From: a virus
Taxonomy: Duplodnaviria > Caudoviricetes
Length of the DNA stretch: 64,000 nt
Strand: one strand, 5' to 3'
Virus record (IMG/VR): IMGVR_UViG_3300031853_000031
Span: 4,579 to 68,578 of that record
This document shows, piece after piece, positions 6,702-33,871 of this stretch (positions are counted from its first letter, which is position 1; the number at the start of each line of letters is the position of its first letter). The position numbers and the translations under genes are program-made. The notes beneath the pieces were generated by a model. That model was not told the origin of the DNA, did no database searches, and was given only the letters and a program-made list of their open reading frames with translations.

Positions 6702-6730
6702 ACTATAACAGGCGGACGCAAAAAAGACAA
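6702..6730 (-). promoter_or_regulatory. Sigma-A-type integrase promoter overlapping the divergent phage promoter
   Basis: Minus strand TTGTCT-17 bp-TATAGT with TG extended -10; overlaps the CGCAA promoter at 6717-6740. Confidence 0.65.
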
Positions 6731-6746
6731 GTGGTATAATGAAAGA

Positions 6747-6890
6747 AAGTATATAAGAACTTATAGTTAGGTAGAGAGAATCGAAAGACTATTCCGACGC
6801 GGGATGAGGTGAGAAACCTACGAACCGGTACCCGGACTTGAAATACAGACGGAAAGCTATAAGTTTCTAAGTATACAACTCTTGTCTTTT
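6747..6890 (+). ncRNA. Putative structured ncRNA 1 (about 140 nt)
   Basis: Downstream of promoter 6717; no ORF; closing stem AACTTATAGTT 6758-6768 / AGCTATAAGTT 6855-6865 extended by GTATA/TATAC; T-loop-like AGGTGAGAAACCT; ends at a T-run. Confidence 0.65.
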
Positions 6891-6924
6891 TTTTCGCAAA
6901 ATCTACATTGGGTATAATGAAAGG

Positions 6925-7146
6925 AAAGAAAAAACTGATGAAGCCTAAGTGCGTTTTAACGAACGCATACGGTGAGCACGCAGGCTATGTAATCTTTTAA
7001 GGCACTATCATACCGGGAGTGAGCAGAGGGTGATGTGTTATATGCGGCGGCGAGATTACATGAGCGTTAATCTCCAAAGGGGAAAGCCCTAAGTGACGTA
7101 AGTTGGTATCAGTAAATTCGCTTTCTAATCAACGCATTATTTTTTT
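6925..7146 (+). ncRNA. Putative structured ncRNA 2 (about 220 nt)
   Basis: Downstream of promoter 6895; no ORF; stems CTGATG/TATCAG, AGCCT/AGGCT, TGCGTT/AACGCA, ATGTAATCT/AGATTACAT and GGG-GAAA-GCCC; T-run at about 7141. Confidence 0.65.
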
Positions 7147-7148
7147 CA

Positions 7149-7177
7149 TAGACTACCAATGTAACATTTGGTATAAT
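7149..7177 (+). promoter_or_regulatory. Sigma-A-type promoter for the 7200 ORF
   Basis: TAGACT-17 bp-TATAAT with TG extension; the spacer CCAATGTAACATTTGG is near-palindromic. Confidence 0.6.
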
Positions 7178-7199
7178 TTTTCCAAAGGAGGTATTTGAC

Positions 7200-7565
7200 A
7201 TGGGTTTAGTTAATATGAAATGCCCTAATTGTGGAGCGGAGTTGAAGATCGATAAGGATAGGGAAAATGTTTACTGCGAGTATTGCGGTTCTCATGTCTA
7301 TTCTCTAATCAAGACAAAAATCGTAGAAGAACATGTTACTAGGGATGAAACTCAGATAAAGAAAATGGAGATAGAAAAACAAGAACGGGAGAAAATGGAG
7401 AAGTACACAGCCCCATTTCTTACCGGTGATCTCGGCGCAATGCTAATCCTTTTTGGGATACTAGGGGAGTATTCTAATTGGTCTCTATTCACAAAAATAA
7501 TATGTATGATACTAGGCGTTGGCTTACTAATCCTAGCACTGATATTATATTTGAAAAAGAAATAA
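7200..7565 (+). CDS. Zinc-ribbon membrane protein (moron or superinfection-exclusion candidate)
   Basis: CPNCG...CEYCG ribbon; two C-terminal hydrophobic helices; RBS AAAGGAGG. Confidence 0.75.
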   Translation: MGLVNMKCPNCGAELKIDKDRENVYCEYCGSHVYSLIKTKIVEEHVTRDETQIKKMEIEKQEREKMEKYTAPFLTGDLGAMLILFGILGEYSNWSLFTKIICMILGVGLLILALILYLKKK

Positions 7566-7599
7566 TTTTTCGCAAAATCTACAGCGCTTATAATGAAAG

Positions 7600-7806
7600 G
7601 AGGTAGACCGCAAAAGATAAGACGGCATTAGTCATATCTATATACATGTCTATTTCACATCTAAAAGGGAAGTGATGTAATACCAAGCACCTCAAAGGTG
7701 GAAGGGTTGCAGTTTTCGACCAATCGTTCAATGAACGTAATGCGGAAGAGCTGTCCGGAACTGGAGTGTAAGTTGTTTTGGTGGAGCAGCTTCCTCTTTT
7801 CTTTTT
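7600..7806 (+). ncRNA. Putative structured ncRNA 3 (about 200 nt)
   Basis: Downstream of promoter 7571; SD-like AAAGGAGG with no following start codon; hairpins CACCT/AGGTG, GGTTG/CGACC, CGTTC/GAACG and GAAGAGCTG/CAGCTTC; T-run at the end. Confidence 0.5.
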
Positions 7807-7884
7807 GCCTGAACGAAGTGAAGACAAGCGAGCATCGCAAAATTTACACTCCTTATAGTAGAAAGATTAAGGAGGTATATTACC

Positions 7885-8073
7885 ATGAAAAAAGCTATAA
7901 CGATTATATTAAGTGTCATATTCGTATTAATGATTTGTGTTTTTGGAATGACTATTTTTAGCTTTATGGCTATTAATAGAGCGAGTGACGAAATCACAAC
8001 TACCATTGAGCGAATTGAAAACGAAAATGAAAAAGTCGATTTAGATTTAGAAAACTTGGTAAATGAATTCTGA
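7885..8073 (+). CDS. Small N-terminal TM protein
   Basis: Own promoter (7836), RBS AAGGAGG and downstream hairpin repeat. Confidence 0.75.
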   Translation: MKKAITIILSVIFVLMICVFGMTIFSFMAINRASDEITTTIERIENENEKVDLDLENLVNEF

Positions 8074-8178
8074 TTTTTGTCCTGAGCAAGACTTTAAACT
8101 GCTCATATTTTTTTCGCAAAATTTACAACTCCTATAATGAAAGAAGGAACTATAGATTTATTATAGGAGGACAAAACA

Positions 8179-8376
8179 ATGTTAAGAACATTAAATAATA
8201 TAGATGTAACAGAAATTGTTTGGAAACTATTAAAAGAGGTTTTCACCTTTGTAGTAATCTTTTGCTGCGTATGGGTAGCAGTAAAGGTGTCTACATTGGT
8301 AGACTTCAAAGTGTTTGCGTTAGTAATGTTAGGAATTATTTATGTGTTAATGTGTAAATTATCTAAAGATTCGTAG
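8179..8376 (+). CDS. Small two-TM protein
   Basis: Own promoter (8115); RBS AGGAGG. Confidence 0.75.
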   Translation: MLRTLNNIDVTEIVWKLLKEVFTFVVIFCCVWVAVKVSTLVDFKVFALVMLGIIYVLMCKLSKDS

Positions 8377-8510
8377 TTCCTCTTTCAAATCCTGAGCAAG
8401 ATTTAAAACTGCTCATTTTCTTTTTGCCATGATGGGGGATCGAATAAGGCACGCAGGTGACGTTATCTAATTGTAAACTTTCACTTATCAAACTATAAGG
8501 AGGTTTCACA

Positions 8511-8717
8511 ATGATAGCTTTTAGAAAAGGTCACATGCCAGTGTCTGTCGCCGCTAAAATATTCGGTAAGGATGCGAGTTGGGTTAGAGCCGGTATAACG
8601 GAAGGTTGGCTACCCATCGGCATCGTAACAGGTCAGGGTAAGAGGTGTAACTATTATATTTCACCAAAGAAGGTCTATGAGCTTACAGGTTACTTATGGG
8701 AGGGTGAGGAGATATGA
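8511..8717 (+). CDS. HTH DNA-binding protein (Xis-like)
   Basis: PVSVAAKIFGKDASWVRAG HTH; YYISPKK wing; RBS AAGGAGG. Confidence 0.7.
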   Translation: MIAFRKGHMPVSVAAKIFGKDASWVRAGITEGWLPIGIVTGQGKRCNYYISPKKVYELTGYLWEGEEI

Positions 8718-9097
8718 GTACGGTAATAAGAAACGAAGTATCCAAGTCCAACCCCTACTATCTCCCAAAGCACCGTTATCTGGAGCTTAAGCACTTCTGC
8801 CTGCAGTATCCTGATTGGAGAAAGGAATACGGAGCTATTATATTTGAGAAAGATGATGACTTTGACCCGACCGGCAAGAAGGCTGTAAGGCTTAAGATGC
8901 TGACGGATAGGATGGCTATGGTGGAAGAGACTGCTAAAGAGGTAGATCCAGTATTAGCAGAGTATCTCTTTTTTGCTGTAACGGGAGATAAGTCCTATAC
9001 ATACCTTAGAACAGCTATGAATATACCCTGTGGCAAGAATCTATACTACGACCTTTACAGGAAGTTCTGGTGGCTACTTAGTAAGAAACGGGAGTAG
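8714..9097 (+). CDS. RinA/ArpU-like transcriptional regulator
   Basis: ELKHFCLQYPDW; C-terminal HTH-like SYTYL...IPCGKNLYYDLYRKFWWLL. Confidence 0.55.
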   Translation: MSTVIRNEVSKSNPYYLPKHRYLELKHFCLQYPDWRKEYGAIIFEKDDDFDPTGKKAVRLKMLTDRMAMVEETAKEVDPVLAEYLFFAVTGDKSYTYLRTAMNIPCGKNLYYDLYRKFWWLLSKKRE

Positions 9098-9157
9098 ACG
9101 CAAGAAAAGCAGTGGTTATAATGAACCACTTAACTTGTTAAAAGAAAGGAGAATATT

Positions 9158-9367
9158 ATGAGCAAGTTAAAAAGAGAGACGTTAATGACATTAGTTGATG
9201 AGATAGGAGCGTATAATGATGCGGTATTGAAACTCTTCAAATGCATGGAAGAGGAAAAGATCGGCAAAGATAAACCACTGCTCCTACTCAAACAGTTGGA
9301 GGTCAGTGTACACGGTCTCAACCTTAACGAAGCCGTATCCAAAGTTTTGGACGAATTAAGTGAGTAA
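9158..9367 (+). CDS. Hypothetical early protein
   Basis: Promoter 9099; RBS GAAAGGAG; GAAA-loop hairpin follows. Confidence 0.7.
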   Translation: MSKLKRETLMTLVDEIGAYNDAVLKLFKCMEEEKIGKDKPLLLLKQLEVSVHGLNLNEAVSKVLDELSE

Positions 9368-9475
9368 ACTTATAAGGGCTCTGCCAGAAATGGCATCCCT
9401 TATAAACTTTTCGCAAAAATTACACCTCTTATAATAGAATCAAGAGGAATATTTTATTATAGGAGGTATGTTATC

Positions 9476-9691
9476 ATGATTAAATATTATATTACACTGG
9501 CTGTAGCAGGTATTTGTAACGCTATGGGCATTCTGATTGGAATGTTCTGTAGATTTCTTACCAATAACGGGATTAATATCCCTGAGGTAGTAACCATGCA
9601 GAATGTGTCCAAGGCATGTTTCCTGGTGTTCATTATCATGTTGGTCATTATGAATATTATGTTAATTATCGAAAGAAAACACAATAAGTAA
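9476..9691 (+). CDS. Small two-TM protein
   Basis: Promoter 9412; RBS AGGAGG; hairpin repeat at 9703. Confidence 0.75.
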   Translation: MIKYYITLAVAGICNAMGILIGMFCRFLTNNGINIPEVVTMQNVSKACFLVFIIMLVIMNIMLIIERKHNK

Positions 9692-9771
9692 ACTCTGATC
9701 AAGTCCTGAGCAAGACTTTAAACTGCTCATTATTTTTTTTTCGCAATAATTACATTCCTTATAATGAAGGA

Positions 9772-10215
9772 ATAATGTAAGGTTTGAGAGACCAACCTTA
9801 AAGATGGATTAAGCCATTGATAAATGGTAGCGTAGCCGTATCGCTAGGCTTGCTTAAATATCCTGGGCGTTAGGTCATTATTTCTACAAAATTATGTAGA
9901 CAAGTTATCACACGGACACGTGGTGGTGGCTACCTAATAATCGTTGATGAAGGGTTATTAGAGTGACGCAGATGATAATCGTAAGTCGGGCAGGCAATAA
10001 ACTGAAAAGGTGTTATTGTTTAAACTACAGATTTTGGGAACAGATATTATGTATGGCTGTTACGATAGTTAGGTGATCGAAAGTGAGCATGAACTCTTAT
10101 GAGGTGAGAAACCTGAACTGTGTGGCTATAAATCGAGCCATTGACGCCAGTATCTCTGAAGGCTGGTGGGCAGCGTTTGATGCGTGCGGTCCTAAGCATA
10201 GTATTTATTTTTTTT
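9772..10215 (+). ncRNA. Putative large structured ncRNA 4 (about 440 nt)
   Basis: Downstream of promoter 9742; no ORF of 60 aa or more; many stems (TAAGGTT/AACCTTA, GTAGCC/GGCTAC, TCTACA/TGTAGA, CTAATAAT/GTTATTAG, GGCAATAA/TTATTGTT, TGGCT/AGCCA, GCCAG/CTGGT); shares a module with ncRNA 1; ends at a T-run. Confidence 0.7.
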
Positions 10216-10235
10216 CTTAGAAAGGAGGTGAAATC

Positions 10236-10505
10236 GTGTTAACTAATATTATATTTTTGGCTGTTGGAGTTTTTGTAACGGTGTGGGCTTTTATCATACT
10301 AGACAGACTTACCGGCATTAGGAACAAACCCGTAGGTGAGCTTCAGGTGGATACAGAAAAGGAGATAGTCCAGTTAGTTTTCTATTCTACTCAGGACCTG
10401 CATCTCTCTATCCATGATAAGACCAGAGTGACCTTTGACGTGGTCCATAAGAGTCTGGATTTTAAGATCCCGGAAGAGTTCACGCAAGGAAAACAGAGCC
10501 TATAA
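10236..10505 (+). CDS. N-terminal TM hypothetical protein
   Basis: RBS AAAGGAGG; GTG start. Confidence 0.7.
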   Translation: MLTNIIFLAVGVFVTVWAFIILDRLTGIRNKPVGELQVDTEKEIVQLVFYSTQDLHLSIHDKTRVTFDVVHKSLDFKIPEEFTQGKQSL

Positions 10506-10547
10506 TGAAGGTGTTGTTAAGCATTATCCAAAGAAAGGAGTTATATC

Positions 10548-10997
10548 ATGGATAAGATTGCTGAGAATCACGAAGAACTTATTGAGAAGTTGCAGGCGCA
10601 TTTGCTTAAGCTGGATCCGGGTGATCCGCAGTATGGTAAGTTGCAAGCACGGTTGGATGCCATGATGAGGCAACGGAGTACAGACTTTAGAAACGAGCTT
10701 GACGCTATTGAGAACAACGAGCGTCTTGAGTTCGATCGCTGGAAAGCTGAGAAGGAAGCAGAAGAGAAAGCTGCTCAGAGAAAGGCTGACCAGGAGAAAA
10801 CCGAGAAGGAGTATGAGATCAACAAGGTCAAGAACAGGAATGATAAAGTCAGGAATGTTGTTGAATTCTTAAAGACTGGCTTCACCGTTTGCGTACCTGC
10901 CGCGTTAACCTGGGTGTTGGCAAAGAAGGAGATGGATCCTGTCGAACCGATCAATGTTAGACAAAGGATTTGGAATCTGATTCCAAAGATTAAGTAA
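10548..10997 (+). CDS. Charged coiled-coil protein with C-terminal hydrophobic segment
   Basis: Promoter 10483; RBS GAAAGGAG. Confidence 0.75.
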   Translation: MDKIAENHEELIEKLQAHLLKLDPGDPQYGKLQARLDAMMRQRSTDFRNELDAIENNERLEFDRWKAEKEAEEKAAQRKADQEKTEKEYEINKVKNRNDKVRNVVEFLKTGFTVCVPAALTWVLAKKEMDPVEPINVRQRIWNLIPKIK

Positions 10998-11125
10998 CTA
11001 TTGGTAATTGCATGAAAACACACTTTATAGCCTCTGTCAGAAATGACAGGGGTTATATTTTTTTCGCAAAAATGACAGCTGTTATAGTAGGAACCTATGG
11101 AATATTATTAATGGAGGTATTTAAT

Positions 11126-11371
11126 ATGAAGGTATACGTGTTAGTAAGCAAGTATAATGAGAACGACAAGCCGAGGTTTACAACTGATGTATTTCAGTCT
11201 TACGGAGAAGCTAATGACGCGGCGTTTGAGCGGATTAATAAAATAATCGGAGAGGATTATGTGTTTGATCGTGAAGCGTCGACAACAAGAGTGAAAATCG
11301 TAAGAAAAGTAGATTCAGGTTGGCTTGGTAGGGTTACTCACAGGTTTGTAATCACGGAAAACGAACTCTAA
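11126..11371 (+). CDS. Hypothetical early protein
   Basis: Promoter 11065; RBS GGAGG precedes ATG 11126, so the track start at 11012 would run through the terminator and promoter. Confidence 0.7.
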   Translation: MKVYVLVSKYNENDKPRFTTDVFQSYGEANDAAFERINKIIGEDYVFDREASTTRVKIVRKVDSGWLGRVTHRFVITENEL

Positions 11372-11467
11372 ACCTGTTCCTAGTCCTGAGCAAGACTTTA
11401 AACTGCTCATTATATTTTTTTCAATAATTACAGAGGCTATAATAGAAAAGCAAAGGAGGTAACAATT

Positions 11468-11680
11468 ATGAACCTAAAGTCGGAAGTAGCTTTGTACGAT
11501 TCCATGGTTGAAACTGAAGATTTGATTGAAAATATTCAAGGGAGGATTTATGGTTTTACAACAATCCCCCTTGAGGAAAGAGATGAGCTTTCAAGGAAAC
11601 TGTATGAGATTCGTATGAAGTTAGTAGATTATTCTAATGCATTAGGTGAGTCGTTAGTTATTATGGAAGCTTTTGATTAA
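11468..11680 (+). CDS. Acidic helical hypothetical protein
   Basis: Degenerate promoter 11420; RBS AAAGGAGG. Confidence 0.7.
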   Translation: MNLKSEVALYDSMVETEDLIENIQGRIYGFTTIPLEERDELSRKLYEIRMKLVDYSNALGESLVIMEAFD

Positions 11681-11729
11681 GGTAATAGTCCTGAGCAAGA
11701 CTTTAAACTGCTCATTATATTTTTCGCTT

Positions 11730-12035
11730 ATGACTTACAAAATCTACAAATGTGACCATTCTGTGTATTCTACATGTACATTATATTTTCATAAAGGTAA
11801 AGGACTAGCCATCATCCAGCAACGCTTTAACAAGAGGCTTAAGGTAACGTTCTGGTCGTCTGTTGACAAGGATTTAGCTGCAGAGATCGCTTATCATGAG
11901 AAGTTCTATGAATATTTCGTTGCTGAAGCAGGCTTCGCTAATGATGGATTATATCCTACCAAGACTATTAGACAGGTTATGTGGGCTCTTAAGATGAAAC
12001 CACTAAAGAAACATCCTTGGGAGACTCGTTGGTGA
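11730..12035 (+). CDS. Hypothetical protein
   Basis: First in-frame ATG after the hairpin repeat; no clear RBS or promoter. Confidence 0.5.
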   Translation: MTYKIYKCDHSVYSTCTLYFHKGKGLAIIQQRFNKRLKVTFWSSVDKDLAAEIAYHEKFYEYFVAEAGFANDGLYPTKTIRQVMWALKMKPLKKHPWETRW

Positions 12036-12100
12036 GTTCGCAAGAATAACAAAGGCTATAATGAAACCTGTTGGTGAGTTGAAGAAAGGAGTACATGTAA

Positions 12101-12172
12101 ATGGAAATGTTGGCGGTTTTCATGATCGCTTTGGGAATTTATATTCTCTATAAAGAGCATACAAAAACCTGA
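12101..12172 (+). CDS. 23-aa hydrophobic peptide MEMLAVFMIALGIYILYKEHTKT (not in ORF track)
   Basis: Own promoter 12039; RBS GAAAGGAG; downstream hairpin and T-run. Confidence 0.6.
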   Translation: MEMLAVFMIALGIYILYKEHTKT

Positions 12173-12286
12173 AGCAAATCATGAATAGGACTAAAGGAGG
12201 CTTTACAGTCTCCTTTCTTTTTCGCAAGAATAACACCTCCTATAATAGGTACAAGTTGATGTACATATTAAGAAAGGAGAACCATT

Positions 12287-12409
12287 ATGGTAAGTATTTT
12301 TGCGGGAGTTGTATTAGGTATCGCTTTAGTAGCGATGATACCGGCAGCAGAAGCCGTAAGTACAGAATTCCAGAAAGGAGAAATCCTTCTGAAGTACAAT
12401 CACGAGTAA
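12287..12409 (+). CDS. 40-aa hydrophobic peptide MVSIFAGVVLGIALVAMIPAAEAV... (not in ORF track)
   Basis: Own promoter 12223; RBS GAAAGGAG; GAAA terminator at 12414. Better supported than track ORF 12181-12447. Confidence 0.65.
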   Translation: MVSIFAGVVLGIALVAMIPAAEAVSTEFQKGEILLKYNHE

Positions 12410-12522
12410 ACGATAAGGAGCTTTGTAGAAATTACAAGGCTCCTTAGTTCTTCCGCAAAAATAACATCTCATATAATGAAGCGTATAGTGTGCTTCGTTA
12501 TATTTTAAAGGAGGATTTTATT

Positions 12523-12762
12523 ATGAAGAAATTAATATTCAAGCTGTCTATGTTAGCTGGAGCAAGCACCGCAGCTGGATGGGGTGGCTATTTTTGGTCT
12601 ATGAAAAACTTCAAGAACGGACATCTTAAAGAAGGCGTCCTGATTGGAACGATCACAGCCATTATAGCTACCGTCCTATCTGTTTGGGGCGGACAGAGAG
12701 CAATAGAGTGGACGAGTGAAGCATTAATAAACAACTCCAAAAAGGAGGAAGCAAGCGCTTAA
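12523..12762 (+). CDS. Small two-TM protein
   Basis: Promoter 12454; RBS AAAGGAGG precedes ATG 12523. Confidence 0.7.
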   Translation: MKKLIFKLSMLAGASTAAGWGGYFWSMKNFKNGHLKEGVLIGTITAIIATVLSVWGGQRAIEWTSEALINNSKKEEASA

Positions 12763-12845
12763 AACCAAGAAGAGGATTAGTAGAAATTACTAGTCCTCTT
12801 AGGTTTTTGCAAGACTTTGCGAGAAGCAGAAAGGAGTGTTGAAAA

Positions 12846-13058: not shown

Positions 13059-13062
13059 AATA

Positions 13063-13458
13063 ATGGAAAGAACTAGAAGAATATTATATTTAATTATGAT
13101 GCTTGGAATCTTATCAGCTGAAGTATCATCTTGTAAGGCACACGCTTCCACAAAGACCATTGTCCCAATGGGCGAATTTCTGATCACCGCCTATTGTCCC
13201 TGCGAGGAGTGCTCAGAGGGTTACGGTCGTAAGACATCAACCGGTCATACAGCCCGAGCGGAGCATACCATAGCGGTTGACCCGTCAGTCATAAACTATG
13301 GTAGCAAAGTCAAAATCGGAAAACGCACATATGTAGCCGAAGACTGTGGCGGTAAAGTCAACGGTGACCATATTGATGTGTTCTTCGATTGTCATGAAGA
13401 GGTTGAAGGGTTTGGAAAGAAGTATAAGAATGTCTTTGTTGTGAAAGGAGAAAAGTGA
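13063..13458 (+). CDS. 3D-domain (MltA-like) cell-wall protein with N-terminal signal or anchor
   Basis: ITAYCPC, TSTG, TIAVDPSVI.YGSKV, AEDCGG and HIDVF (three Asp motifs); RBS AAGGAGG. Confidence 0.85.
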   Translation: MERTRRILYLIMMLGILSAEVSSCKAHASTKTIVPMGEFLITAYCPCEECSEGYGRKTSTGHTARAEHTIAVDPSVINYGSKVKIGKRTYVAEDCGGKVNGDHIDVFFDCHEEVEGFGKKYKNVFVVKGEK

Positions 13459-13889
13459 TGGGTGAACTGTATTATGAAAACGCAACTGGTTCGATGTTTC
13501 GTTCTAAGTCGGTTGAAGAGATTAGAAAGCGAATGGGAGAAATAGCTAAGAACTCAGAAGAGTCGTTACAGGCTGAGGGTTATTTGAGTGGTAAGACCGT
13601 CCAAGAATTATGTTTTGACGAGTTTTACAAACCATACTCCGGTAATGTTGTTACAGTCGTTGGTAGTTACATCAACGTATACTCCATAGGCGTTGATGTG
13701 TATGTCATTTTAAATGAACCAAACGATCAACCTAGGTCACACGAGGTTGGTGTTATAAGCGAGACGATAGGCAAATTGTTAAATGACAAAACGGAGACCA
13801 TAACTGAAAATAAAGTTTATGAGGCTCTTGATAAGCTGGAGTTAAAGTGTCTTAAGTTCGGCTTTAGTGTAAATATTATAATCCGATAA
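13455..13889 (+). CDS. Hypothetical protein
   Basis: RBS GAAAGGAG; overlaps the upstream stop. Confidence 0.7.
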   Translation: MMGELYYENATGSMFRSKSVEEIRKRMGEIAKNSEESLQAEGYLSGKTVQELCFDEFYKPYSGNVVTVVGSYINVYSIGVDVYVILNEPNDQPRSHEVGVISETIGKLLNDKTETITENKVYEALDKLELKCLKFGFSVNIIIR

Positions 13890-13939
13890 CGCAACAAAAA
13901 CATCTCCTATAATAGGTCGAATGAAAGGAGGACCAAGAT

Positions 13940-14308: not shown

Positions 14309-14380
14309 CGAGCGAGGAGCTTAGTAGAAATTACTAGGCTCCTTAGCTTTTTCTTAACGAAAGGAGATTATATTTAAGCA

Positions 14381-14940: not shown

Positions 14941-15789
14941 ATGAACATGACAACAACAGCAGTAATTTTACCAGAATGTGAACAGATTAAACAGAGGAGA
15001 CTTGAAATGGGGCTTTCTCAGGCAAAAGTCGAAGATAGTCTTGGATGGGGTAGAGGTAACCTTTCCAAATACGAGAAGGGTACTACCAAGATTCCGGCAG
15101 ACCGTAAAGAGGAACTCTGGGAGTTCTATGGTCTGGGTGCTAAGAAGGTCGCTGACTTCTTCGGGTTTAAGGAGACGGAGACACCAAGACCTGTTAAGGA
15201 CACTTCTCGTGGGTCTAGTACTCATAACGCTGAGGGTTATACAGATCCAACTATGGCAGAAGCTCTTAAGAAAGCTATGGCAGCTACCAAGTATACCGAT
15301 CCTCTGCCCGGTGAGGTGTGGACGAACTATAGGAACAACGGAGGCGTCCTTAGCAAGCTGATACTCTCTGTTGAAGGTAATACTGCTTACTGCCTGACAG
15401 TCTTCACTAAAGGTGCCAGCTATGACTTTAAGGTCAAGTGTAAGGCAGGTTTTACATATTATGTAGCCTTCGACAGGATGGAAGCTATCAAACTCAAAGA
15501 CCTTAAGGAAAGAAAGGCTATTATATCCTCTAAGTCTTTCGAAGAGGTTAAGCTTCACTTCGCCGGCTTGATGGGTATTGCTGTTGTAGAAAAGACCGTG
15601 GAGGTACCGGTTGAGGTTGAGAAGGTTGTAGAGAAGGAAGTCGTTAAAGAAGTTCCGGTAGAAGTAATCAAAGAGGTAGAGAGGGAGGCTCCAGTGATCG
15701 ACTCCTTTGAGTTTGAGATGTGCAAGAGGGAGCGTGACATCTACAAGGACATTGTAGACAGACTCTTGCCCTCTAAGACGCTTTTATGA
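14941..15789 (+). CDS. XRE-type HTH protein with C-terminal EVPVEVEKVVE repeats
   Basis: IKQRRLEMGLSQAKVEDSLGWGRGNLSKYEKG is an XRE HTH; E/K/V/P repeats near the C-terminus. Confidence 0.8.
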   Translation: MNMTTTAVILPECEQIKQRRLEMGLSQAKVEDSLGWGRGNLSKYEKGTTKIPADRKEELWEFYGLGAKKVADFFGFKETETPRPVKDTSRGSSTHNAEGYTDPTMAEALKKAMAATKYTDPLPGEVWTNYRNNGGVLSKLILSVEGNTAYCLTVFTKGASYDFKVKCKAGFTYYVAFDRMEAIKLKDLKERKAIISSKSFEEVKLHFAGLMGIAVVEKTVEVPVEVEKVVEKEVVKEVPVEVIKEVEREAPVIDSFEFEMCKRERDIYKDIVDRLLPSKTLL

Positions 15790-17396: not shown

Positions 17397-17398
17397 AA

Positions 17399-19055: not shown

Positions 19056-19945
19056 CTATGTGGCCATTACCGGAAAATACATACTTAGGTTATAAAGATT
19101 TTTGTAAAGGTTGCAAACATTGTAAACCCGATATAGTATCTCAGGGCCTTGAGTATCATTTCTTGACTTGTGAGCACATGTCTGCTTGTGAGGCATTATA
19201 TTCGAGAATAACGGGAGGTGATAAAGATGCCACTGCTTTATCATAAACAGTGCATTATTTGTGGGGCTTATTTCAAACCAAGAAATAGAATCCAAGTCAC
19301 TTGTGGATCAAAGGTATGCCAAAGCGAATACAGTAAAAAAGTTAGAAGTCCTAAAAAGCATGGGTTAAAAGATCCGATGAAAGGACTTACCATGGATGCC
19401 ATTGCTGCAGAGAACCTTGGAATGACTTACGGGCAATACAAGGGAGCCCAATGGTGTAGGAACAAACAGGTAATGAGCAGCACCAGTCCGGTATATGAAT
19501 TTAGAGGCGTTGAATAGGAGGGATTATATTTTGGAAACAACAGCAATGTTAATCGAGTTTGAAAAGTGGTGCCCTAAGTGTAAGAATAATGTCCTGGCTG
19601 AGGAAGAGGATCCTTGTGATGAATGCTTAGAGCAGGGTTGGAACGAAGATTCCGTTAAGCCGATTAGGTTTGAGCCTAAGGAGTAAAATTATGACAAACT
19701 ATGAAAAGATGAAGCCGGCGTTAGATATGATCTTCGATGACGTAAATCTTGATGAAGCGGCAAAAGTTTTAAGTAACGGTCTTATCGCTTGTGAATTTTG
19801 CAATATTAGGAACTATTGCGATGAGAAAACGGATATTTATAACGACAGTAAACCGCCGTTAGGAAAGATTGTTACTTGCGAGGAAGTCTGCAAAATGTGG
19901 CTTAAAGAAAACGCAGAAAAAACAGTGGGTATAATGAGCGAATAG
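19052..19945 (+). CDS. Four small Cys-motif (Zn-finger-like) ORFs: 19052-19246, 19218-19517, 19495-19686, 19670-19945
   Basis: CKGCKHC..C, CIICG...CGSKVC, CPKC...CDEC and CEFC...C motifs; overlapping coupled ORFs. Confidence 0.55.
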
Positions 19946-20365: not shown

Positions 20366-20452
20366 ACGAGTAAAAAACGCGAAACCGGAAGAGGATTAGT
20401 AGAAATTACTAGTCCTCTTAGGTTTTTCTCATAGTAATGAAAGGAGTATATC

Positions 20453-21239: not shown

Positions 21240-22073
21240 ATGAACCTTGTAAAAATATTAAAGCCTTTAGAAAAAACCGCTTACCAGTTGCTTAGATCTG
21301 TTAAGGCTAACAGAACTACGCTCTACGCCATTGGAGCGACAGTTGGAGTGGTTGGGACGGCTGCGGCTAGTGCTAAGGCGGCTGTTAAGACCAAGGAGTA
21401 TCAGGAGGAGTATGCTGATGCGAGCTTTGCTGAGAAGGCGAAATTTATTGGTGGACTTTGGGTGATGCCGGTAGTAGTAGGAGGCGTTACTATCTTCTGT
21501 ATCTGGAGAGGACATAAGATCCACCTTGAGAAGGAAGCAAGTCTGGCTGCTATGAGTGCTTTCTGGAAGACCAAGTACGATGAACTTGATAAGAAAATCT
21601 CTGAGAAACTCTCTGAAGAAGAGTACAAAGAGGTTAAGGATGAGATATTCAAAGAGAACGTAGAGAAGGCAGCTAATGAACGGGGAGTGAATCTTGCAGC
21701 TCTGTCTAAAGGCCAGTTCTGGGTGTACGACGCTATAACAGGGCAGTTCATGAAGGTGACTGCAGACCAGATGACCTGGGCTACATATGCTCTTAATAAG
21801 CGTTTCATGGAAGGACAGGTCGTGCAGTATAACTGGTTCTTAGGACTGCTTGGAGGTAGACCGAGTGAACTTGCTAAAGACGTTGGTTGGGATCCTAACA
21901 ACGAGACGTTCTTTGAAATGTTGGACTACAATAATGGGTTCGGCATCGCACCGTGGCTTGATGTAGATGCTGACCATCACGCCGACATCAATATGGATCC
22001 TGTTAACTCTGAGGGCTTGCCTGTAGCGCAACTGTTCTACAAGTATGACCCCTTCTATCTATATGAAAAATGA
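21240..22073 (+). CDS. Paralogue family member 1 (DUF6353-like)
   Basis: AIGATVGVVGTAAASAKAA hydrophobic helix, second TM, C-terminal YNWFLGLLG...VGW; family name from recall. Confidence 0.6.
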   Translation: MNLVKILKPLEKTAYQLLRSVKANRTTLYAIGATVGVVGTAAASAKAAVKTKEYQEEYADASFAEKAKFIGGLWVMPVVVGGVTIFCIWRGHKIHLEKEASLAAMSAFWKTKYDELDKKISEKLSEEEYKEVKDEIFKENVEKAANERGVNLAALSKGQFWVYDAITGQFMKVTADQMTWATYALNKRFMEGQVVQYNWFLGLLGGRPSELAKDVGWDPNNETFFEMLDYNNGFGIAPWLDVDADHHADINMDPVNSEGLPVAQLFYKYDPFYLYEK

Positions 22074-22580: not shown

Positions 22581-22855
22581 TCCGCAAGAAAAGCAGTTGG
22601 TATAATGGAAGGCTATAGGTCTTACTATTATATTTTGAAAGGAGTTTTATTATGAAGAAAGTATTGTTAGGAACTGGTTTAGGTTTCTTTGGCACCTGTT
22701 GTTTGTTATGCTGGAGGTGTCGTGATGATGCCTGGACCAAGGAGTTTACAGATTTTCTCTGGGAAGTGAACTCTGATTGTAAGAAAAAGATACTATAGTT
22801 GTACAAAGGGCTCTGTAATTATATTTACAGGGTCCTTTAGTTTTTTCGTTGGTTT

Positions 22856-23686
22856 TTGGAGGCTGTTATGAAACTACCGATTAAAGCTGTTAAGACAGCG
22901 CTGGTTAAGTATACGAAGATGATCCCTAAACTGATGGTCAAGGAGAGTCCTACTATACTTGCTGGGATAGGTGTTGTAGGCGTAGTTAGTGTTGCTGTAA
23001 CGACGCATACGGCGACCAAGAAGGCTGTGGAAAAGATGGAGGAAGTACGCAGCGAGGATGATTACGTGGAGCCCGAAACAAAGGTTGATGCTGCTATTGA
23101 GGAGGTAAAGGAGACATGGCAGTATTATATTCCTGTTGGAGCTATTATGGTGGTTGCTATCGTAGCTATCGTTCAGGGGAATAGGATAAGTTTGAGGCGT
23201 ATATCCATTCTTACTGATGCTTACAGGATGAGCGAGAAACTGAGGAAAGAGTATCAGACCAAGGTTAAGGAGGTCCTTGGAGAGAATAAGGAAGCCAAAA
23301 TCCAGAATGAGATAGCTCAGGACAGGCTTGATGAAGACCCTGTTGATGAGAAGTATGTCTATGCGACAGGGCATGGTAATAGTTTGATCAAGGACTGCTT
23401 TTCTGGAAGATACTTCTATAGCAATCCGGAGTTCATAAGACAAGTTAAGAATCAGTTGGATAGAAAACTCGTTATTGAAGATTATATTTCTGTTAACGAG
23501 CTTTTCTATAAACTAGATTTGGAGATGTTAGATGCTGCAGCGGACTATGGTTGGAGGGTAGACCACTGTGACATGAAGGATCTTACAGACATTAGACTAA
23601 TACCAGGTACAGCTTCTGATGGAAGGCCGTGTCATGTGCTGACGTATGAAGTTGAGCTGGGTTTTGATGTGTATGAGGATAGTTAG
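22856..23686 (+). CDS. Paralogue family member 2 (DUF6353-like); start probably ATG 22868
   Basis: SPTILAGIGVVGVV, YIPVGAI, ISVNELFYKLD...YGW. Confidence 0.7.
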   Translation: MEAVMKLPIKAVKTALVKYTKMIPKLMVKESPTILAGIGVVGVVSVAVTTHTATKKAVEKMEEVRSEDDYVEPETKVDAAIEEVKETWQYYIPVGAIMVVAIVAIVQGNRISLRRISILTDAYRMSEKLRKEYQTKVKEVLGENKEAKIQNEIAQDRLDEDPVDEKYVYATGHGNSLIKDCFSGRYFYSNPEFIRQVKNQLDRKLVIEDYISVNELFYKLDLEMLDAAADYGWRVDHCDMKDLTDIRLIPGTASDGRPCHVLTYEVELGFDVYEDS

Positions 23687-25041: not shown

Positions 25042-25324
25042 TCATTACAAAAAACAGTGCTCAATTGAGTGCATCGAGGCTATGGAAATAGCTTTTGGGG
25101 CTGAAGGAGTGGTCAATTTCTGCCTTTGTAACGCCTTTAAGTACTTATGGAGGCATACAAACAAGGCTGGATACGAGGATTTAGAGAAGGCATCCTGGTA
25201 CGTTGACGCCGCAAGGGAGAAAATGCCCTTGATGGGTGATAAGAGAGGGCTTTATGAAGCTAAATTACTCTCTTTAAGTGAAGTTATCGCGACTTATGTA
25301 TTATATTTTGGAGGAAAATCATGA
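25004..25324 (+). CDS. DUF3310-like (SaV-like) protein
   Basis: INPDHY...ECIEAM...FCLCNAFKYLWR...KAGYEDLEKASWY. Confidence 0.8.
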   Translation: MGKLVGKDAINPDHYKKQCSIECIEAMEIAFGAEGVVNFCLCNAFKYLWRHTNKAGYEDLEKASWYVDAAREKMPLMGDKRGLYEAKLLSLSEVIATYVLYFGGKS

Positions 25325-26331
25325 AATTATTAAGCGTTGTTGCATCTAAAATGACAAATTCTATGGGTAAAGTTGGTTTAAAACTCACTAAGGCAGCTCC
25401 TGATATTCTCGTTGCTGCAGGTATTGGTGGACTTGTTGGAGCTACTGTTTGGCTGATTAAGAACGAGGAAAAGCGTAAGGAAATTCTCGAAGACTTTGCT
25501 GAAGAGAGAGAAAACATCGAGGCCGACAAGGAGATTTTAGAAGAGATGGCTGAATCTGGCAATACCGAGGCCGTAGAATGCCCTTCTGACGCACCAGAAG
25601 CCTCATATAGCGGTTTAGTGGTAAAATCCTATGTAGAGGTCGCTGGAAGGCTTGCAGGGCTGTATGCGGCTCCTGTGGCTTTATACGGGGTCTCTCTGGC
25701 TTGTATCTTAAAGAGCCATTATATTCTTAAAGGGAGAGTTGCAGGTCTTGCTGCTGCTTATGAGTGTCTGGACAGAGCCTATAAGAGGTACCGTGGGAAC
25801 GTCGTTGAGAGATATGGTGAAGAGGTCGACAAGGATATGGCTTACGGCAGAAAGAAGGAGACTATCATTGAGAGCCATCCAGATCCTGAGACAGGCGAGG
25901 AGATTGTTGAGACCAGCGAGAGAATGACTTACAACGTTCCTCTTGGTGGATCTGAGTTCGGTAGATGGTTTGAGCAGGGTGGTAGTTGGGAGTTTGAGAA
26001 GAACAATCCCATTTACAATATGACTTACGTTGTTGGAGTACAGGCTCAGCTTGATAACCTGCTGCACGCAAGAGGGCACGTATTCCTTAACGAGGCATAT
26101 GACGCTTTGGGATTTGAAAGAACGCCTGAGGGAGCTGTTGTAGGTTGGATCCTGGGAGCCGGGGACGATTGTATTGACTTCGGTATCAACGACAAGGTGG
26201 TTTGGGTTAAGGACCGCTGGCATGGCGACGGAGACGAGCTTACTGTTGTAGGAAGAGACGATTATGACGGCTTCAGACAGGGATTCTGGCTTGATTTCAA
26301 CCACGATGGAGTTATATTTGACAAGATTTGA
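25321..26331 (+). CDS. Paralogue family member 3 (DUF6353-like)
   Basis: APDILVAAGIGGLV, LYAAPVAL, RVAGLAAAY, GHVFLNEAYDALG...VGW. Confidence 0.75.
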   Translation: MKLLSVVASKMTNSMGKVGLKLTKAAPDILVAAGIGGLVGATVWLIKNEEKRKEILEDFAEERENIEADKEILEEMAESGNTEAVECPSDAPEASYSGLVVKSYVEVAGRLAGLYAAPVALYGVSLACILKSHYILKGRVAGLAAAYECLDRAYKRYRGNVVERYGEEVDKDMAYGRKKETIIESHPDPETGEEIVETSERMTYNVPLGGSEFGRWFEQGGSWEFEKNNPIYNMTYVVGVQAQLDNLLHARGHVFLNEAYDALGFERTPEGAVVGWILGAGDDCIDFGINDKVVWVKDRWHGDGDELTVVGRDDYDGFRQGFWLDFNHDGVIFDKI

Positions 26332-28020: not shown

Positions 28021-28052
28021 AAAAATGGATTATTTGGAGGGCTTGATATGAT

Positions 28053-31000: not shown

Positions 31001-32039
31001 TAAGTCTGGCGACTTTGATAAGGCCAAGACCATGCTTGGTGGAAAGCTTGCCAAGTATCTGACCAATCCTGAGGAAGCTGATCAGTTACAGACAGCCCTT
31101 AAACTGGTGCTTAACTCAACTTATGGTATTGCAGCGGCTACGTTCCCGAATCCGCTTAGGGATGATAGGGACGTGAACAATATTATTGCGCTTCGTGGTG
31201 CTTTATTCATGAGAACGTTGCAGGATGAAGTAGCCGAACGTGGTTTTACTGTAGCGCATATAAAAACAGACTCCATCAAGATACCTGATGCTACTCCTGA
31301 GATTATCGAATTCGTTATGGAGTTTGGCAGGAAGTATGGATATGAGTTTGAGCATGAGGCGACATATGAGAAGATGTGTCTTGTCAATAATGCCGTTTAT
31401 GTTGCTAAGTATGCTACGCCCGAATGGTGTGAGGAAGCTTATGGTTATATTCCAAAGGATTGTAAGAAGCATCCGGGACAGTGGACGGCTACTGGCACAC
31501 AGTTCCAAGTTCCGTATGTCTTTAAGACACTCTTTAGTCATGAACCAATTATATTTGACGACATGTGTGAGACCAAATCGGTTAAGACTGCTATCTATCT
31601 GGACTTTGCAGAGGATAAGTTTGATGTGAGTCAGTGGGAAGATCTTAAAGCGTTTAGGGAGATTAGCCCTGAGAAGAGAACTAGGAAACAGGATAAGTTG
31701 GTCGAGCTTTATAAAGACATCAGCGATCAGGAGCTTGATGACATGATAGCAGAAGGTCACAATTATATTTTCATAGGACGGGTTGGAAGATTCTGTCCTA
31801 TGGTGAAAGGTTGCGGTGCTGGGTACTTGCTTCGTGAAAGCGATACCGGTTTTAGTGCTGTGACTGGAAGTAAAGGTTATATGTGGATGGAGGCAGAGTC
31901 TGTTGAGAAGCTTGGCCTTCAGGATAAGATTGATAAGAGCTATTATATTTCACTAGTTGATGAGGCTATTAAGTCTATCAGTGAGTACACAGATATTGAA
32001 TGGTTCTTAGATAGTGACGTAGAAGACGCAGTAGCGTGA
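28053..32039 (+). CDS. Fused SF3-type helicase / AEP primase / 3'-5' exonuclease / family B DNA polymerase
   Basis: GDRGTGKS (Walker A); DFDIKD...SKSGGGIHLYY (AEP); FFDVEV, GFNNRKYD, YCVYDV (Exo I-III); DVGNMH, KLVLNSTYG, KTDS (PolB A-C). Confidence 0.9.
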   Translation: MYDFVKITSRSPKHGLVEVYPEFLVETSDDLMIKGGDFYAVWMEDKQLWSTNEDDVIRTIDAAIKDEVERLRKTSSDHVKGLYLKYSSTRMIKSWHSFVQTDMREHFTPLDKKIIFADTKTTKKDYASKKLPYSLSDGECPCWDELVGTLYSETERAKIEWAIGAIVTGDSKKLQKFLVMYGDRGTGKSTIINIIEQLFKGYCTTFVSKALGSSKDSFAMSPFKDNPLVAIEHEGNLSKIEDNSKLNAIVSHDSVVINEKFEKAYSQKLNTFIVIASNKPVKITDSKSGLLRRLIDVTPTGNKIPAERYLYLTNNIQFELGAIAKHCKDVYLDMGFRYYDNYVPKLMLGETNDMYNFLEDMYDELVREDGITMKSLWARYKEYCQEANVPYPFSYRVFKTEVRPYFTDSYERKRLEDGTQVRNYLSGFKAEKFDYIFQKEESEKEKGAKNNFWLEFGEYESVFDEEFIDCPAQYGSGKDEKPMKSWDDVELVLGDLDTTRLHYVRVPLYLICVDFDIKDPVTGKKSLELNIEAASKWKATYAELSKSGGGIHLYYIYEGDVEALERNYGDDIEIKVFTGKSSLRRRLTKCNNLPIAKISSGLPKKEVRKTVSKKTIEDEKHLVNKINMALRKEVSPGKTVTCVNYIYDTLEEAYNSGMHYDVTALKGKILGFAMGSTNHSQECVDRVANMRFCSDDVSEPVEASSDLLVFFDVEVFKNLFVIVWKAQDKNHKPVIMINPKPEEVEALFDFRLVGFNNRKYDNHILWAAMMGYNNLQLYHLSQNIIGNVDGACFREAYNLSYADIYDFSSKKQSLKKWEIELKIHHEELGLKWDQEVPPELWDKVAQYCVYDVLATEAVFDACHGDYTARQILAELSGLKVNDTNRAHITKILVGNDKNPKHVYTDLSIIFPGYKMEWVNGKKCNMYRGTDVGFGGYVYAEPGAYTNVALLDVGNMHGASILALNKFGEHTKNYKEIRDARMAIKSGDFDKAKTMLGGKLAKYLTNPEEADQLQTALKLVLNSTYGIAAATFPNPLRDDRDVNNIIALRGALFMRTLQDEVAERGFTVAHIKTDSIKIPDATPEIIEFVMEFGRKYGYEFEHEATYEKMCLVNNAVYVAKYATPEWCEEAYGYIPKDCKKHPGQWTATGTQFQVPYVFKTLFSHEPIIFDDMCETKSVKTAIYLDFAEDKFDVSQWEDLKAFREISPEKRTRKQDKLVELYKDISDQELDDMIAEGHNYIFIGRVGRFCPMVKGCGAGYLLRESDTGFSAVTGSKGYMWMEAESVEKLGLQDKIDKSYYISLVDEAIKSISEYTDIEWFLDSDVEDAVA

Positions 32040-32055
32040 AAGGAGAATTATATTT

Positions 32056-32580
32056 ATGGAATACAGGAATATCCCCAATATCGTATTAAAGGACGTTGAC
32101 GCAAGACAGATGATGTACAGGAACTTCGCAGGTAATGAAGGAAGATTCAATCCTGCAGGCAGAAGAAGCTTTACTCTTAGGTTTAATCCCGATCCTAAAG
32201 TGGACGGTCCGTTAGTTGAGCAGCTTAAGGCTGATGGATGGAATATCCGTGATAAGGAAACACGTGATGGCGATCCCATGTGCCAGCTGCAGGTCTTTGT
32301 GGACTTCTCTAAAGCCAAGTTCATGCCCAACATCAAGATGTATCGTAACAGCGATATGAGAGGTGTGAGGATTACAGAGTCAAACGCCGATCTGCTTGAT
32401 TCGTCAGAGATTGTTTCGTTTGACGTTAGCATTAGACCCTATCAGTGGGAGACAGCTCCTGGCACATCCGGTGTTAAGGCTTATGTTAAGTCTATGAATG
32501 TCGTAATTGAGTATGACGAGATCGCTGATCGGTACGAACATGGTGTTGCGGAAGACGATGAAGAACTTCCGTTCCTGTAA
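32056..32580 (+). CDS. Single-stranded DNA-binding protein
   Basis: Located in the replication module; OB-like pattern; acidic tail EDDEELPFL. Confidence 0.7.
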   Translation: MEYRNIPNIVLKDVDARQMMYRNFAGNEGRFNPAGRRSFTLRFNPDPKVDGPLVEQLKADGWNIRDKETRDGDPMCQLQVFVDFSKAKFMPNIKMYRNSDMRGVRITESNADLLDSSEIVSFDVSIRPYQWETAPGTSGVKAYVKSMNVVIEYDEIADRYEHGVAEDDEELPFL

Positions 32581-33779
32581 TGGGAATTGAGCTGGATGCT
32601 CATCAGATAGAAGCTGTTAACAAACTTGGTAATGGTAAGATACTTTGTGGCGTAGTAGGTTCAGGTAAGAGTCGTTGTGCTCTTGCCTACTACTTCTGCC
32701 GTGAGTGTCAGGGCAAGGTACGGCTTAATGGTAAGGGTCGTTATGTGAAACCTAAGAAGCCTAAGCCATTATATATTATCACTACAGCAAGGAAGAGGGA
32801 TACATTCGAGTGGGAAAAGGAATGTCTCCCTTTTCTTCTTAGTGACGAAGTTACCGTAGACTCATGGAATAACATCAAGAAGTATGTAGATGTTAGAGAT
32901 GCGTTCTTTATATTTGATGAGCAAAGAGTTGTTGGTTATGGAGCATGGTCTAAGTCTTTTATAAAGATAGCTAGGAACAATCGCTGGATTCTTCTTAGTG
33001 GAACACCCGGTGATACTTGGATGGACTATATGTCTGTCTTCATAGCTAACGGATTCTTTAAACACAAGACTGATTTCGTTAATCAACATGTGGTCTTTAA
33101 GAAGTTCTCACGTTACCCAAACCAAATCGACTATTATATTTTTGAGGATCGGTTAGAGAAGTTAAGAGACCAGATACTGGTGGATATTGAATACACCAAG
33201 CCTGCCACCTCACACGAACAGGTTGTCCAAGTAAGTTATGATAGGACACTCTATAAAACGGTTCGTAGCAGACGGTGGAATATCTATAAGGACGAGCCGG
33301 TTCAGAACATTTCAGAACTCTGCTACTTGCTTAGAAGAATTATCAACACTGACGAGAGTAGAGAGAAAGCAGTTATAGAAATTGTTCGTGAGAAGAAGAA
33401 AGTAATTATATTTTACAATTTCAATTGCGAATTGGACATGCTTAAAGGGATTAAGTATGGGAATGGCTTTTCTGTTGCAGAATGGAATAGTTATAAGCAT
33501 GAGCCTATTCCTAAGACAGACAAGTGGGTGTACTTGGTTCAGTACGCTGCCGGTGCTGAAGGATGGAATTGTATAGAAACAGACACTATTATATTTTTCT
33601 CACAGAACTACTCATACAAAATTATGCAACAAGCTGCTGGTCGTATAGACCGACGCAACACACCCTTTAAAGACTTGTATTTTTATCACTTGAAATCAAG
33701 AGCTCCGATTGACAAGGCTATCTCTGTAGCCCTTAAAGAGAAGCGTAATTTTAACGAGTCTCGTTTCATCGGAAAGTAG
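32580..33779 (+). CDS. SF2 (SNF2/DEAD-like) helicase
   Basis: VGSGKS, FDEQR, LSGTPG, GAEGWN and QAAGRIDR motifs. Confidence 0.9.
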   Translation: MGIELDAHQIEAVNKLGNGKILCGVVGSGKSRCALAYYFCRECQGKVRLNGKGRYVKPKKPKPLYIITTARKRDTFEWEKECLPFLLSDEVTVDSWNNIKKYVDVRDAFFIFDEQRVVGYGAWSKSFIKIARNNRWILLSGTPGDTWMDYMSVFIANGFFKHKTDFVNQHVVFKKFSRYPNQIDYYIFEDRLEKLRDQILVDIEYTKPATSHEQVVQVSYDRTLYKTVRSRRWNIYKDEPVQNISELCYLLRRIINTDESREKAVIEIVREKKKVIIFYNFNCELDMLKGIKYGNGFSVAEWNSYKHEPIPKTDKWVYLVQYAAGAEGWNCIETDTIIFFSQNYSYKIMQQAAGRIDRRNTPFKDLYFYHLKSRAPIDKAISVALKEKRNFNESRFIGK

Positions 33780-33871
33780 CCTTTCGCAAAAAAAACAGAC
33801 GGTATAATAGAAGAGAAGGGAAGAAATATGCCATTTTTGATATTATTTTGGCATTTTCTTATATTTTTTCG

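Follow-up and report, generated by a model that had tools for sequence, protein, structure and literature searches.

Promoters read by a phage's own RNA polymerase are already a known kind of system, with examples in T7, N4 and P23-45. In the Thermus phage P23-45, the virion enzyme gp96 is associated with an AT-rich motif and the non-virion enzyme gp64 with a GC-rich one (PMC10770324). In the Gordonia phage Vardy, a 50-bp intergenic motif has been described in print as a putative regulatory element that includes a sigma-70 -10 (PMC9671010). A phage supercluster that comprises Lactococcus phage 1706, Faecalibacterium phage FP_oengus and the actinophage clusters AM, AU, AW, DJ, CC, EL and BI has a conserved replication-region block, within which a helix-turn-helix (HTH) domain-containing gene encodes a polymerase-like protein (Koert et al., bioRxiv 10.1101/842583). 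Here we analyzed a 64,000-nucleotide stretch (the window) of IMG/VR record IMGVR_UViG_3300031853_000031, corresponding to bases 4579-68578 of a circularly assembled 68,578-bp phage genome, which carries 18 sites of the form CGCAA-N5-ACA-N5-TATAAT. From sequence comparison we propose that these sites are probably promoters read directly by the phage's 975-residue, HTH-bearing two-barrel RNA polymerase, and not by the host sigma-A holoenzyme. This phage is a temperate, CGCAA/TATAAT-type example of a promoter class that we describe as CGCR-N6-ACA-N5-TWTWAT-RR.

Results

The window contains 12 exact copies of CGCAA-N5-ACA-N5-TATAAT and 17 when up to one mismatch is allowed, all on the plus strand, compared with 0.00-0.01 expected from the dinucleotide-preserving shuffles that served as the chance expectation for motif counts. 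An eighteenth, degenerate copy retains ACA and the hexamer (Table 1). This pattern search confirmed the first-pass annotation, which had described 17 copies and a degenerate one, all on the same strand and with invariant spacing, and whose list of variants (two GCA, two TATAGT and one CGCAG) was correct throughout. Its statement that the structural module holds no copy was also borne out by a scan of the whole genome, and the remaining 4.6 kb outside the window added no further copy.

When the 18 sites were aligned, the only informative positions were those of CGCAA, of an A-rich stretch, of ACA, of a single G/C base, of the hexamer and of the three to four purines that follow it (GAAAG or AGAA), with spacers and flanks unconserved. 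This pattern indicates selection on the boxes, and recent duplication was ruled out as the origin of the copies because their spacers and flanks are not conserved. When the hexamer was masked (C[GA]C[AG]-N6-AC[AG]-N5-xxxxxx-RRR), TATAAT or TATAGT occupied the masked position in 15 of 16 plus-strand matches but in none of the three matches on the minus strand. The copies are intergenic, placed 5' of small early genes, of transcripts that lack an open reading frame (ORF), of two middle genes and of the operon that ends in the polymerase gene, and 13 of the 18 sit 24-72 nt 5' of a start codon led by a ribosome-binding site. Roughly half directly adjoin the T-run of the preceding terminator, and therefore nothing 5' of the first C of CGCAA appears to be needed. 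A stem, GAGCAAGACTTTAAACTGCTC, with a T-run lies 5' of three copies (8075-8114, 9700-9741 and 11395-11419), forming terminator-promoter cassettes. Four copies are followed by 150-470 nt without an ORF (6741-6890, 6919-7150, 7595-7835 and 9766-10235), which are candidate non-coding RNAs; tRNA and Rfam searches of the window, including these stretches, gave no match.

When gapped k-mers were scanned blind, CGCAA-N13-TATAA emerged in this phage, TTTACA-N5-TATAGT in 1706 and TCGCA-N19-TGAGA in the Streptomyces phage PherryCruz. Written out in full, the 1706 element reads C(G/A)CAwGTTTTACA-N4-CTATAGT-AGAAAG (about 12 copies) and that of PherryCruz TCGCAnGTTTTACG-N5-TATAAT-GAGACCCCTAC (6 copies), and all three are the same element. 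In other relatives, plus- and minus-strand copies numbered 14 and 0 in Rhodococcus phage ReqiPoco6, 7 and 0 in Arthrobacter phage Mudcat, 2 and 0 in Bifidobacterium phage BitterVaud1 and 8 and 0 in Vardy. A common architecture, CGCR-N6-ACA-N5-hexamer-RR, is found in phages of Lactococcus, Streptomyces, Rhodococcus, Arthrobacter, Gordonia and Bifidobacterium and in polymerase-bearing prophages of Clostridia. A literature search with the motif strings returned nothing relevant, and those on 1706 and on Arthrobacter phages came back empty.

The distances between the boxes are invariant. Among the IMG/VR matches listed for CGCA-N6-ACA-N5-TATAATGA, 33 of 80 stretches held 2-10 copies. When one or the other gap was made 1 nt longer, 86 and 108 stretches matched, and the 160 matches listed were all single hits on contigs of every size. 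The spacing is critical, with shifted spacings at chance level.

Motif and polymerase were found together whichever of the two was used for selection. Of ten near-complete contigs picked solely for the motif, nine encoded the polymerase, the exception being a 104-kb contig with a single hit, and all six IMG/VR loci chosen by polymerase alone carried one copy 892-908 nt 5' of the polymerase ORF, compared with 903 nt here. In 80 polymerase-selected loci from bacterial genomes (mostly Lachnospiraceae, Oscillospiraceae and other Clostridia, many of them prophages in large contigs), the hexamer-masked pattern had 116 matches on the strand of the polymerase gene and 3 on the opposite strand. Six prophage relatives (L453, L454, L408, L446, L484 and L485) have extra promoter copies 1-5 kb 3' of the polymerase gene; in these, unlike in this phage, the motif may also serve late or adjoining genes. 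Across five whole bacterial genomes totaling 20.9 Mb, 37 of 40 matches to the degenerate motif fell inside polymerase prophages and on the polymerase strand, and a reversed-pattern control yielded a single match. These host genomes do not use the motif.

The hexamer varies in a way that bears on its reader. In the 80 loci it was TTTTAT at 50 sites, TATAAT at 17 and TATTAT at 14, followed by TTTAAT, TATAGT, CTTTAT and TGTTAT, and relatives also carry TCTTAT in the same frame. Position 2 was T at 59 sites, A at 37, G at 5 and C at 4, compared with 94-99% conservation at positions 1, 3, 5 and 6. Because single prophages mix TATAAT, TATAGT and TTTTAT, and because identical polymerases are accompanied by different hexamers, one reader accepts T-W-T-W-A-T. 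Recognition by sigma-70 family factors hinges chiefly on the A at -11, which is position 2 of the hexamer. Since that position is free across the family, with T commoner than A, sigma-A is unlikely to read the hexamer of the family. We also looked at position 2 on a 67-leaf polymerase tree, where its state required at least 15 changes compared with 23.8 for shuffled labels; covariation with the tree was dropped, the position being simply degenerate, and no reading domain could be assigned. Covariation of the first box (CGCA or CGCG) with HTH residues was likewise abandoned, as both variants occur on the same contigs.

Sigma-A promoters of Firmicutes normally require a -35 element or an extended -10 TG. 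At the -35 position of the 18 sites, the mean best match to TTGACA was 2.6 of 6 compared with 2.5 at random positions, and 4 of 6 or better was reached at only two sites; a TG preceded the hexamer at three. The argument that CGCAA lies too close to the hexamer to be a sigma-A -35 therefore holds in its geometry, and the sites as a group lack both a -35 and a TG. Ordinary sigma-A promoters had also been assigned to gene 7200 and to a '44932 gene'. The former indeed has a TG-extended promoter upstream (TAGACT-17-TGgTATAAT), whereas the latter proved to be a small minus-strand ORF with a TGgTATACT-like element. This lone 58-residue ORF (44756-44932) lies between the terminase and portal genes, has its own ribosome-binding site and is moron-like. 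As a host-read start of the polymerase operon on induction, a sigma-A-like site at 33837-33865 (TTGATA-17-TATATT) was considered and rejected, since in this region such sites occur at chance density (30 found, 30.9 expected).

The proposed reader of the promoters matches PHROG 4291 (E = 0) and is laid out as a disordered N-terminal leader (residues 1-39 in the structure model), two N-terminal HTH modules, a catalytic loop with the sequence SGADFDGDT (residues 571-579) and a C-terminal HTH that resembles sigma region 4. In sequence the loop is similar to that of the cellular RNA polymerase beta-prime subunit (NADFDGD), and it is invariant in 12 homologues and in a 69-sequence alignment. HTH matches were obtained at both ends of the protein, including sigma-70 region 4 at residues 933-974, and the recognition helices of the three HTH units are among the conserved segments, with R121, S965 and T968 invariant or nearly so. 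The Pfam RdRP family (PF05183) was matched at E = 3.5e-4 and 14.3 bits, below its 23.8-bit cut-off; among the control genomes only Bacillus subtilis, which carries the YonO-encoding SP-beta prophage, gave a match, and this too was sub-threshold.

An AlphaFold model built on 69 homologues reached a mean predicted local distance difference test (pLDDT) of 84 and a predicted template-modeling score (pTM) of 0.70; an earlier model from a six-sequence alignment (pLDDT 56) was discarded. Foldseek placed QDE-1 first (E = 3e-8), followed by the Thermus phage proteins gp62/gp64 (E = 8e-6 to 1e-4), with probability 1.0 but low TM-scores of 0.26-0.42, and then by RDR2 and the largest subunits of cellular polymerases. 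Sequence searches of the PDB, with the single sequence and with a profile, found weak HTH matches only. PHROG 4291 polymerases occur in 250 of 50,697 phage records, and the family as a whole spans at least 7,999 protein clusters, with relatives in the genomes of 297 bacterial species and in 250 sequenced phages. The signature protein of the supercluster introduced above is this polymerase ('HTH / putative RNA polymerase'), and a literature search found no bench test of the family. The polymerase gene is followed by a small gene (phrog_4303; Table 1), as it also is in 1706, ReqiPoco6, Mudcat and PherryCruz, and the product of the phrog_4303 gene is a possible accessory factor.

Two observations relate the polymerase to the virion. 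Its homologue in 1706, orf75, was deposited as a 'structural protein', a label repeated in the ReqiPoco6 record, and orf75 is reportedly given as a virion protein in the abstract of Garneau et al. 2008. The disordered leader of the polymerase, L-x-H-Y-G ... G-R-Y-P-W-G-S-G-K-N-P, also resembles the ...FLVHHGRxGQKWGVKNGPP leader of three head-module proteins. These three (38885-39724, 40051-41064 and 41312-43012) are near-identical over their first 30 residues (..YQDFLVHHGRxGQ(K/R)WGVKNGPPYPL), and the shared leader may be a capsid-targeting or cleavage tag. The polymerase is probably delivered in the virion, which is suggested by the need of the early genes for the enzyme at time zero. The earlier idea of a virion-delivered phage polymerase thus gains indirect support, from the 1706 label and from the leader likeness.

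Coding in the genome is almost entirely on one strand. Fourteen promoter copies are packed into 7 kb, 5' of small, mostly orphan genes and the four ORF-less stretches; beyond this early region comes a replication block, which encodes a helicase and a fused primase-helicase-polymerase. The polymerase operon is followed by a G/C-rich hairpin region and then by the head and tail genes. In this hairpin region (37868-37960), an inverted repeat rich in G/C (GGGGGGAGGGGG...CCCCCTCCC) is accompanied by another hairpin; it is likely the cohesive-end site or a terminator that separates the right arm of the virion DNA from the left. Terminator hairpins recur elsewhere, with an identical 31-nt hairpin at 12770-12800 and 20389-20419 and a close copy at 14314-14344. 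The middle region includes three paralogous DUF6353 (phrog_2152) genes at 21240-22073, 22868-23686 and 25321-26331. Megablast of the promoter-rich region against phage records gave no match.

A further polar word, TTATATT, occurs 81 times on the plus strand and once on the minus strand between positions 1 and 38000 of the window (for example, at 12498, 19956 and 22628), compared with about 14 expected per strand, and is nearly absent from 40-60 kb. It is found inside ORFs and just 5' of ribosome sites (TTATATTTTGAAAGGAG). The related word ATATT[CT] is polar in ReqiPoco6 (140 to 2), PherryCruz (27 to 0) and BitterVaud1 (164 to 22), with the bias reversed in 1706 (47 to 149).

Table 1. Promoter copies and associated genes, in window coordinates.
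Feature	Position	Strand	Variant or context
Tyrosine integrase	5490-6680	-	
Copy 1, exact	6717-6740	+	Followed by about 150 nt without an ORF; divergent from integrase gene
Copy 2, exact	6895-6918	+	T-run directly upstream; about 280 nt of ORF-poor transcript 5' of gene 7200
Copy 3, exact	7571-7594	+	5 nt past stop of gene 7200
Copy 4, TATAGT	7836-7859	+	25 nt 5' of ORF 7885
Copy 5, exact	8115-8138	+	Adjoins terminator T-run; 40 nt 5' of ORF 8179
Copy 6, GCA for ACA	9099-9122	+	35 nt 5' of ORF 9158
Copy 7, exact	9412-9435	+	40 nt 5' of ORF 9476
Copy 8, exact	9742-9765	+	ORF-free for about 470 nt downstream (candidate non-coding RNA, no Rfam match)
Copy 9, exact	10483-10506	+	41 nt 5' of ORF 10548
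Copy 10, TATAGT	11065-11088	+	Adjoins terminator 11026-11057 and its T-run; 37 nt 5' of ORF 11126
Degenerate copy, TTCAA for CGCAA, ACA and TATAAT intact	11420-11443	+	24 nt 5' of ORF 11468
Copy 11, exact	12039-12062	+	3 nt past stop of ORF 11673-12035
Copy 12, exact	12223-12246	+	Adjoins terminator 12193-12216; 40 nt 5' of ORF 12287
Copy 13, exact	12454-12477	+	45 nt 5' of ORF 12523
Copy 14, exact	13890-13913	+	Directly past stop of ORF 13455-13889; 26 nt 5' of ORF 13940
XRE-type HTH protein	14941-15789		
Copy 15, CGCAG	19912-19935	+	Middle region; 43 nt 5' of ORF 19979
Copy 16, GCA for ACA	22583-22606	+	45 nt 5' of ORF 22652 and DUF6353 genes
Copy 17, exact	33785-33808	+	903 nt 5' of polymerase ORF; heads endonuclease-exonuclease-polymerase operon; copy at the same place in relatives
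Single-chain two-barrel RNA polymerase, 975 residues	34688-37615	+	Proposed reader of the promoters
77-residue protein, phrog_4303	37633-37866	+	Follows polymerase gene

Discussion

In the mechanism that we propose, a compact promoter of about 27 bp, which begins at the first C of CGCAA and ends with the purines that follow the hexamer, would drive the early and middle genes. The three boxes are centered 9-10 bp apart and so would lie on one face of the helix. The HTH modules, two N-terminal and one C-terminal, would dock on the duplex boxes CGCR and ACA, and the A/T-rich hexamer would serve as the melting and initiation element. Transcription would start in the conserved purine run, at the hexamer or a few bases past it. 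In 1706, the Shine-Dalgarno sequence AGAAAGAAGG begins directly past TATAGT and 19 nt before the annotated start codons; because the ribosome site must be on the mRNA, the start there would be at the hexamer or within 1-2 bases of it, a hint that these promoters start closer to the hexamer than sigma-type promoters do. The first polymerase molecules would arrive with the virion, and the copy 903 nt 5' of the polymerase gene would then drive further synthesis. The two separate transcription programs suggested in the first-pass annotation are borne out to the extent that the structural module has no copy of the motif.

A bolder version, which we put forward only tentatively and hold to be rather doubtful, is that a single polypeptide does the job of a whole holoenzyme: three HTH modules and a two-barrel core would read a 27-bp promoter without sigma, the enzyme would be capsid-borne behind a cleavable leader, and in temperate members the promoters would be invisible to the host, so that a prophage devoid of polymerase protein, as in this phage, would be kept silent without a repressor at each of its 18 promoters.

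The first-pass annotation had left the choice between a phage polymerase and host polymerase with a phage activator, and the evidence favors the former, given the co-occurrence of motif and enzyme across phyla, a hexamer without a fixed -11 A and the absence of the motif from host chromosomes. In the host-based form of the idea, a phage specificity factor (T4 MotA/AsiA-type appropriation or a small phage sigma) would redirect the host core enzyme by way of CGCAA/ACA at around -30/-20; sigma-A or the factor would handle the hexamer, and the two-barrel protein could be that factor or do something else. Such a scheme would place the CGCAA box where T4 has its MotA box, about 12 bp before the -10, would suit the TATAAT hexamers of this phage and, the -10 being universal, would explain conservation across phyla through a conserved phage factor, for which the small protein encoded 3' of the polymerase gene is a possible candidate. 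We nevertheless judge it unlikely. Position 2 of the hexamer is more often T than A, even within one prophage, so that reading by sigma-A is improbable; the 50 proteins scanned, a set that does not take in every ORF, included no member of a sigma-like or MotA/AsiA-like family; and for the early genes the factor would have to be present at time zero. The block conserved between actinophage and Firmicute members, moreover, has just one protein with an HTH domain, namely the polymerase-like one (bioRxiv 10.1101/842583).

It is still harder to see the sites as strong host sigma-A promoters of a '-10 only' type, with CGCAA and ACA as regulator sites, a UP-like feature or baggage of a promoter-leader cassette, and we give this a low probability. 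The exact box spacing is kept across phyla, relatives have TTTTAT, TGTTAT and TCTTAT in the same frame, the -35 is no better than random with few TG extensions to compensate, and the five host chromosomes hold essentially no copies outside prophages; on the other side stand the many perfect TATAAT hexamers of this phage, the norm that strong early promoters of phages are read by the host, and the published description of the homologous Vardy motif (PMC9671010). We rejected as highly improbable a third explanation, in which CGCAA-N5-ACA is the operator of a lysogeny repressor that overlaps each early promoter, like the SPBRE repeats of SP-beta, so that one repressor silences all. The phage does encode an integrase and an XRE-type HTH protein (Table 1), and a protein bound to the boxes, which fall within the promoter core, would block the promoter, but the virulent relatives without an integrase (1706, PherryCruz, Mudcat, ReqiPoco6 and Vardy) keep the boxes, which are not palindromic, and an operator would leave the missing -35 and the TTTTAT variants unexplained.

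Several points weigh against direct reading by the phage polymerase. Sixteen of the 18 hexamers in this phage, that of the degenerate copy among them, are perfect sigma-A -10 elements and the remaining two are TATAGT, and for this reason some activity of the host polymerase at these sites is conceivable. The -10 of primary sigma factors is universal, so conservation across phyla also fits a host core polymerase with a conserved phage factor. Promoter variants and polymerase residues did not covary, and the contigs used for co-occurrence were chosen by size, not randomly. Virion delivery is argued from the database label of a homologue with 34% identity and from a short similarity between leaders, and transcription start, enzyme activity and binding are all predictions, for the family as a whole.

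In the literature that we searched, a three-box promoter for an HTH-bearing two-barrel enzyme is not described as such, and the element is in print only as a sigma-70-like motif; the polymerase family is still mostly labeled 'HTH DNA-binding protein'. If our proposal is true, the annotation of hundreds of actinobacteriophage genomes would be corrected, the family could show how a minimal two-barrel polymerase recognizes promoters without sigma, and it may offer a compact, host-orthogonal transcription module for Firmicutes and Actinobacteria. In temperate members, early promoters private to the phage would also prompt the question of what controls lysogeny.

Among known systems, the promoters of T7, T3 and SP6 are alike in size (about 23-27 bp), fixed geometry, an upstream part recognized as duplex, an A/T-rich TATA by the start, a purine-rich initial transcript and many copies on one strand, but they are contiguous, in contrast to three boxes with free spacers, and are read by an unrelated, Pol I-like enzyme. 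T4 middle promoters (a MotA box at -30 and a sigma-70 -10, with AsiA) similarly combine a box about 12 bp from a TATAAT-like hexamer with the lack of a -35; there, however, host sigma-70 reads the hexamer, whereas the family described here tolerates T, G and C at position 2. YonO of SP-beta is likewise a single-chain two-barrel polymerase with a sub-threshold Pfam RdRP match, encoded by a temperate Firmicute phage, but it serves one late operon from an undefined promoter (PMC5467207), whereas the 975-residue enzyme has fused HTH modules and candidate promoters for early and middle genes.

The likeness to P23-45 includes a phage two-barrel single-chain polymerase, a promoter motif of its own before early genes and the restriction of that motif to enzyme-bearing relatives; one of the P23-45 enzymes is virion-delivered, and gp62/gp64 are among the best structural matches to the 975-residue protein. 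The promoters of the two phages nevertheless share no sequence similarity, fused HTH modules are absent from the P23-45 enzymes, and gp96 forms a fusion with the tape measure protein. This phage has one polymerase and a three-box, one-face architecture, known from sequence, whereas P23-45 is known from experimental start sites and chromatin immunoprecipitation. The 50-bp motif of Vardy, in comparison, is the same element: its eight copies read CGCAnnAwTTACACGyCCTATAAT-GAGACCCCTAyGAAAGGA with identical box spacing, and cluster DJ, to which Vardy belongs, carries the polymerase. In actinophages the promoter is extended by a conserved leader, GAGACCCCTAY, and a ribosome-binding site, neither of which forms part of the element in this phage.

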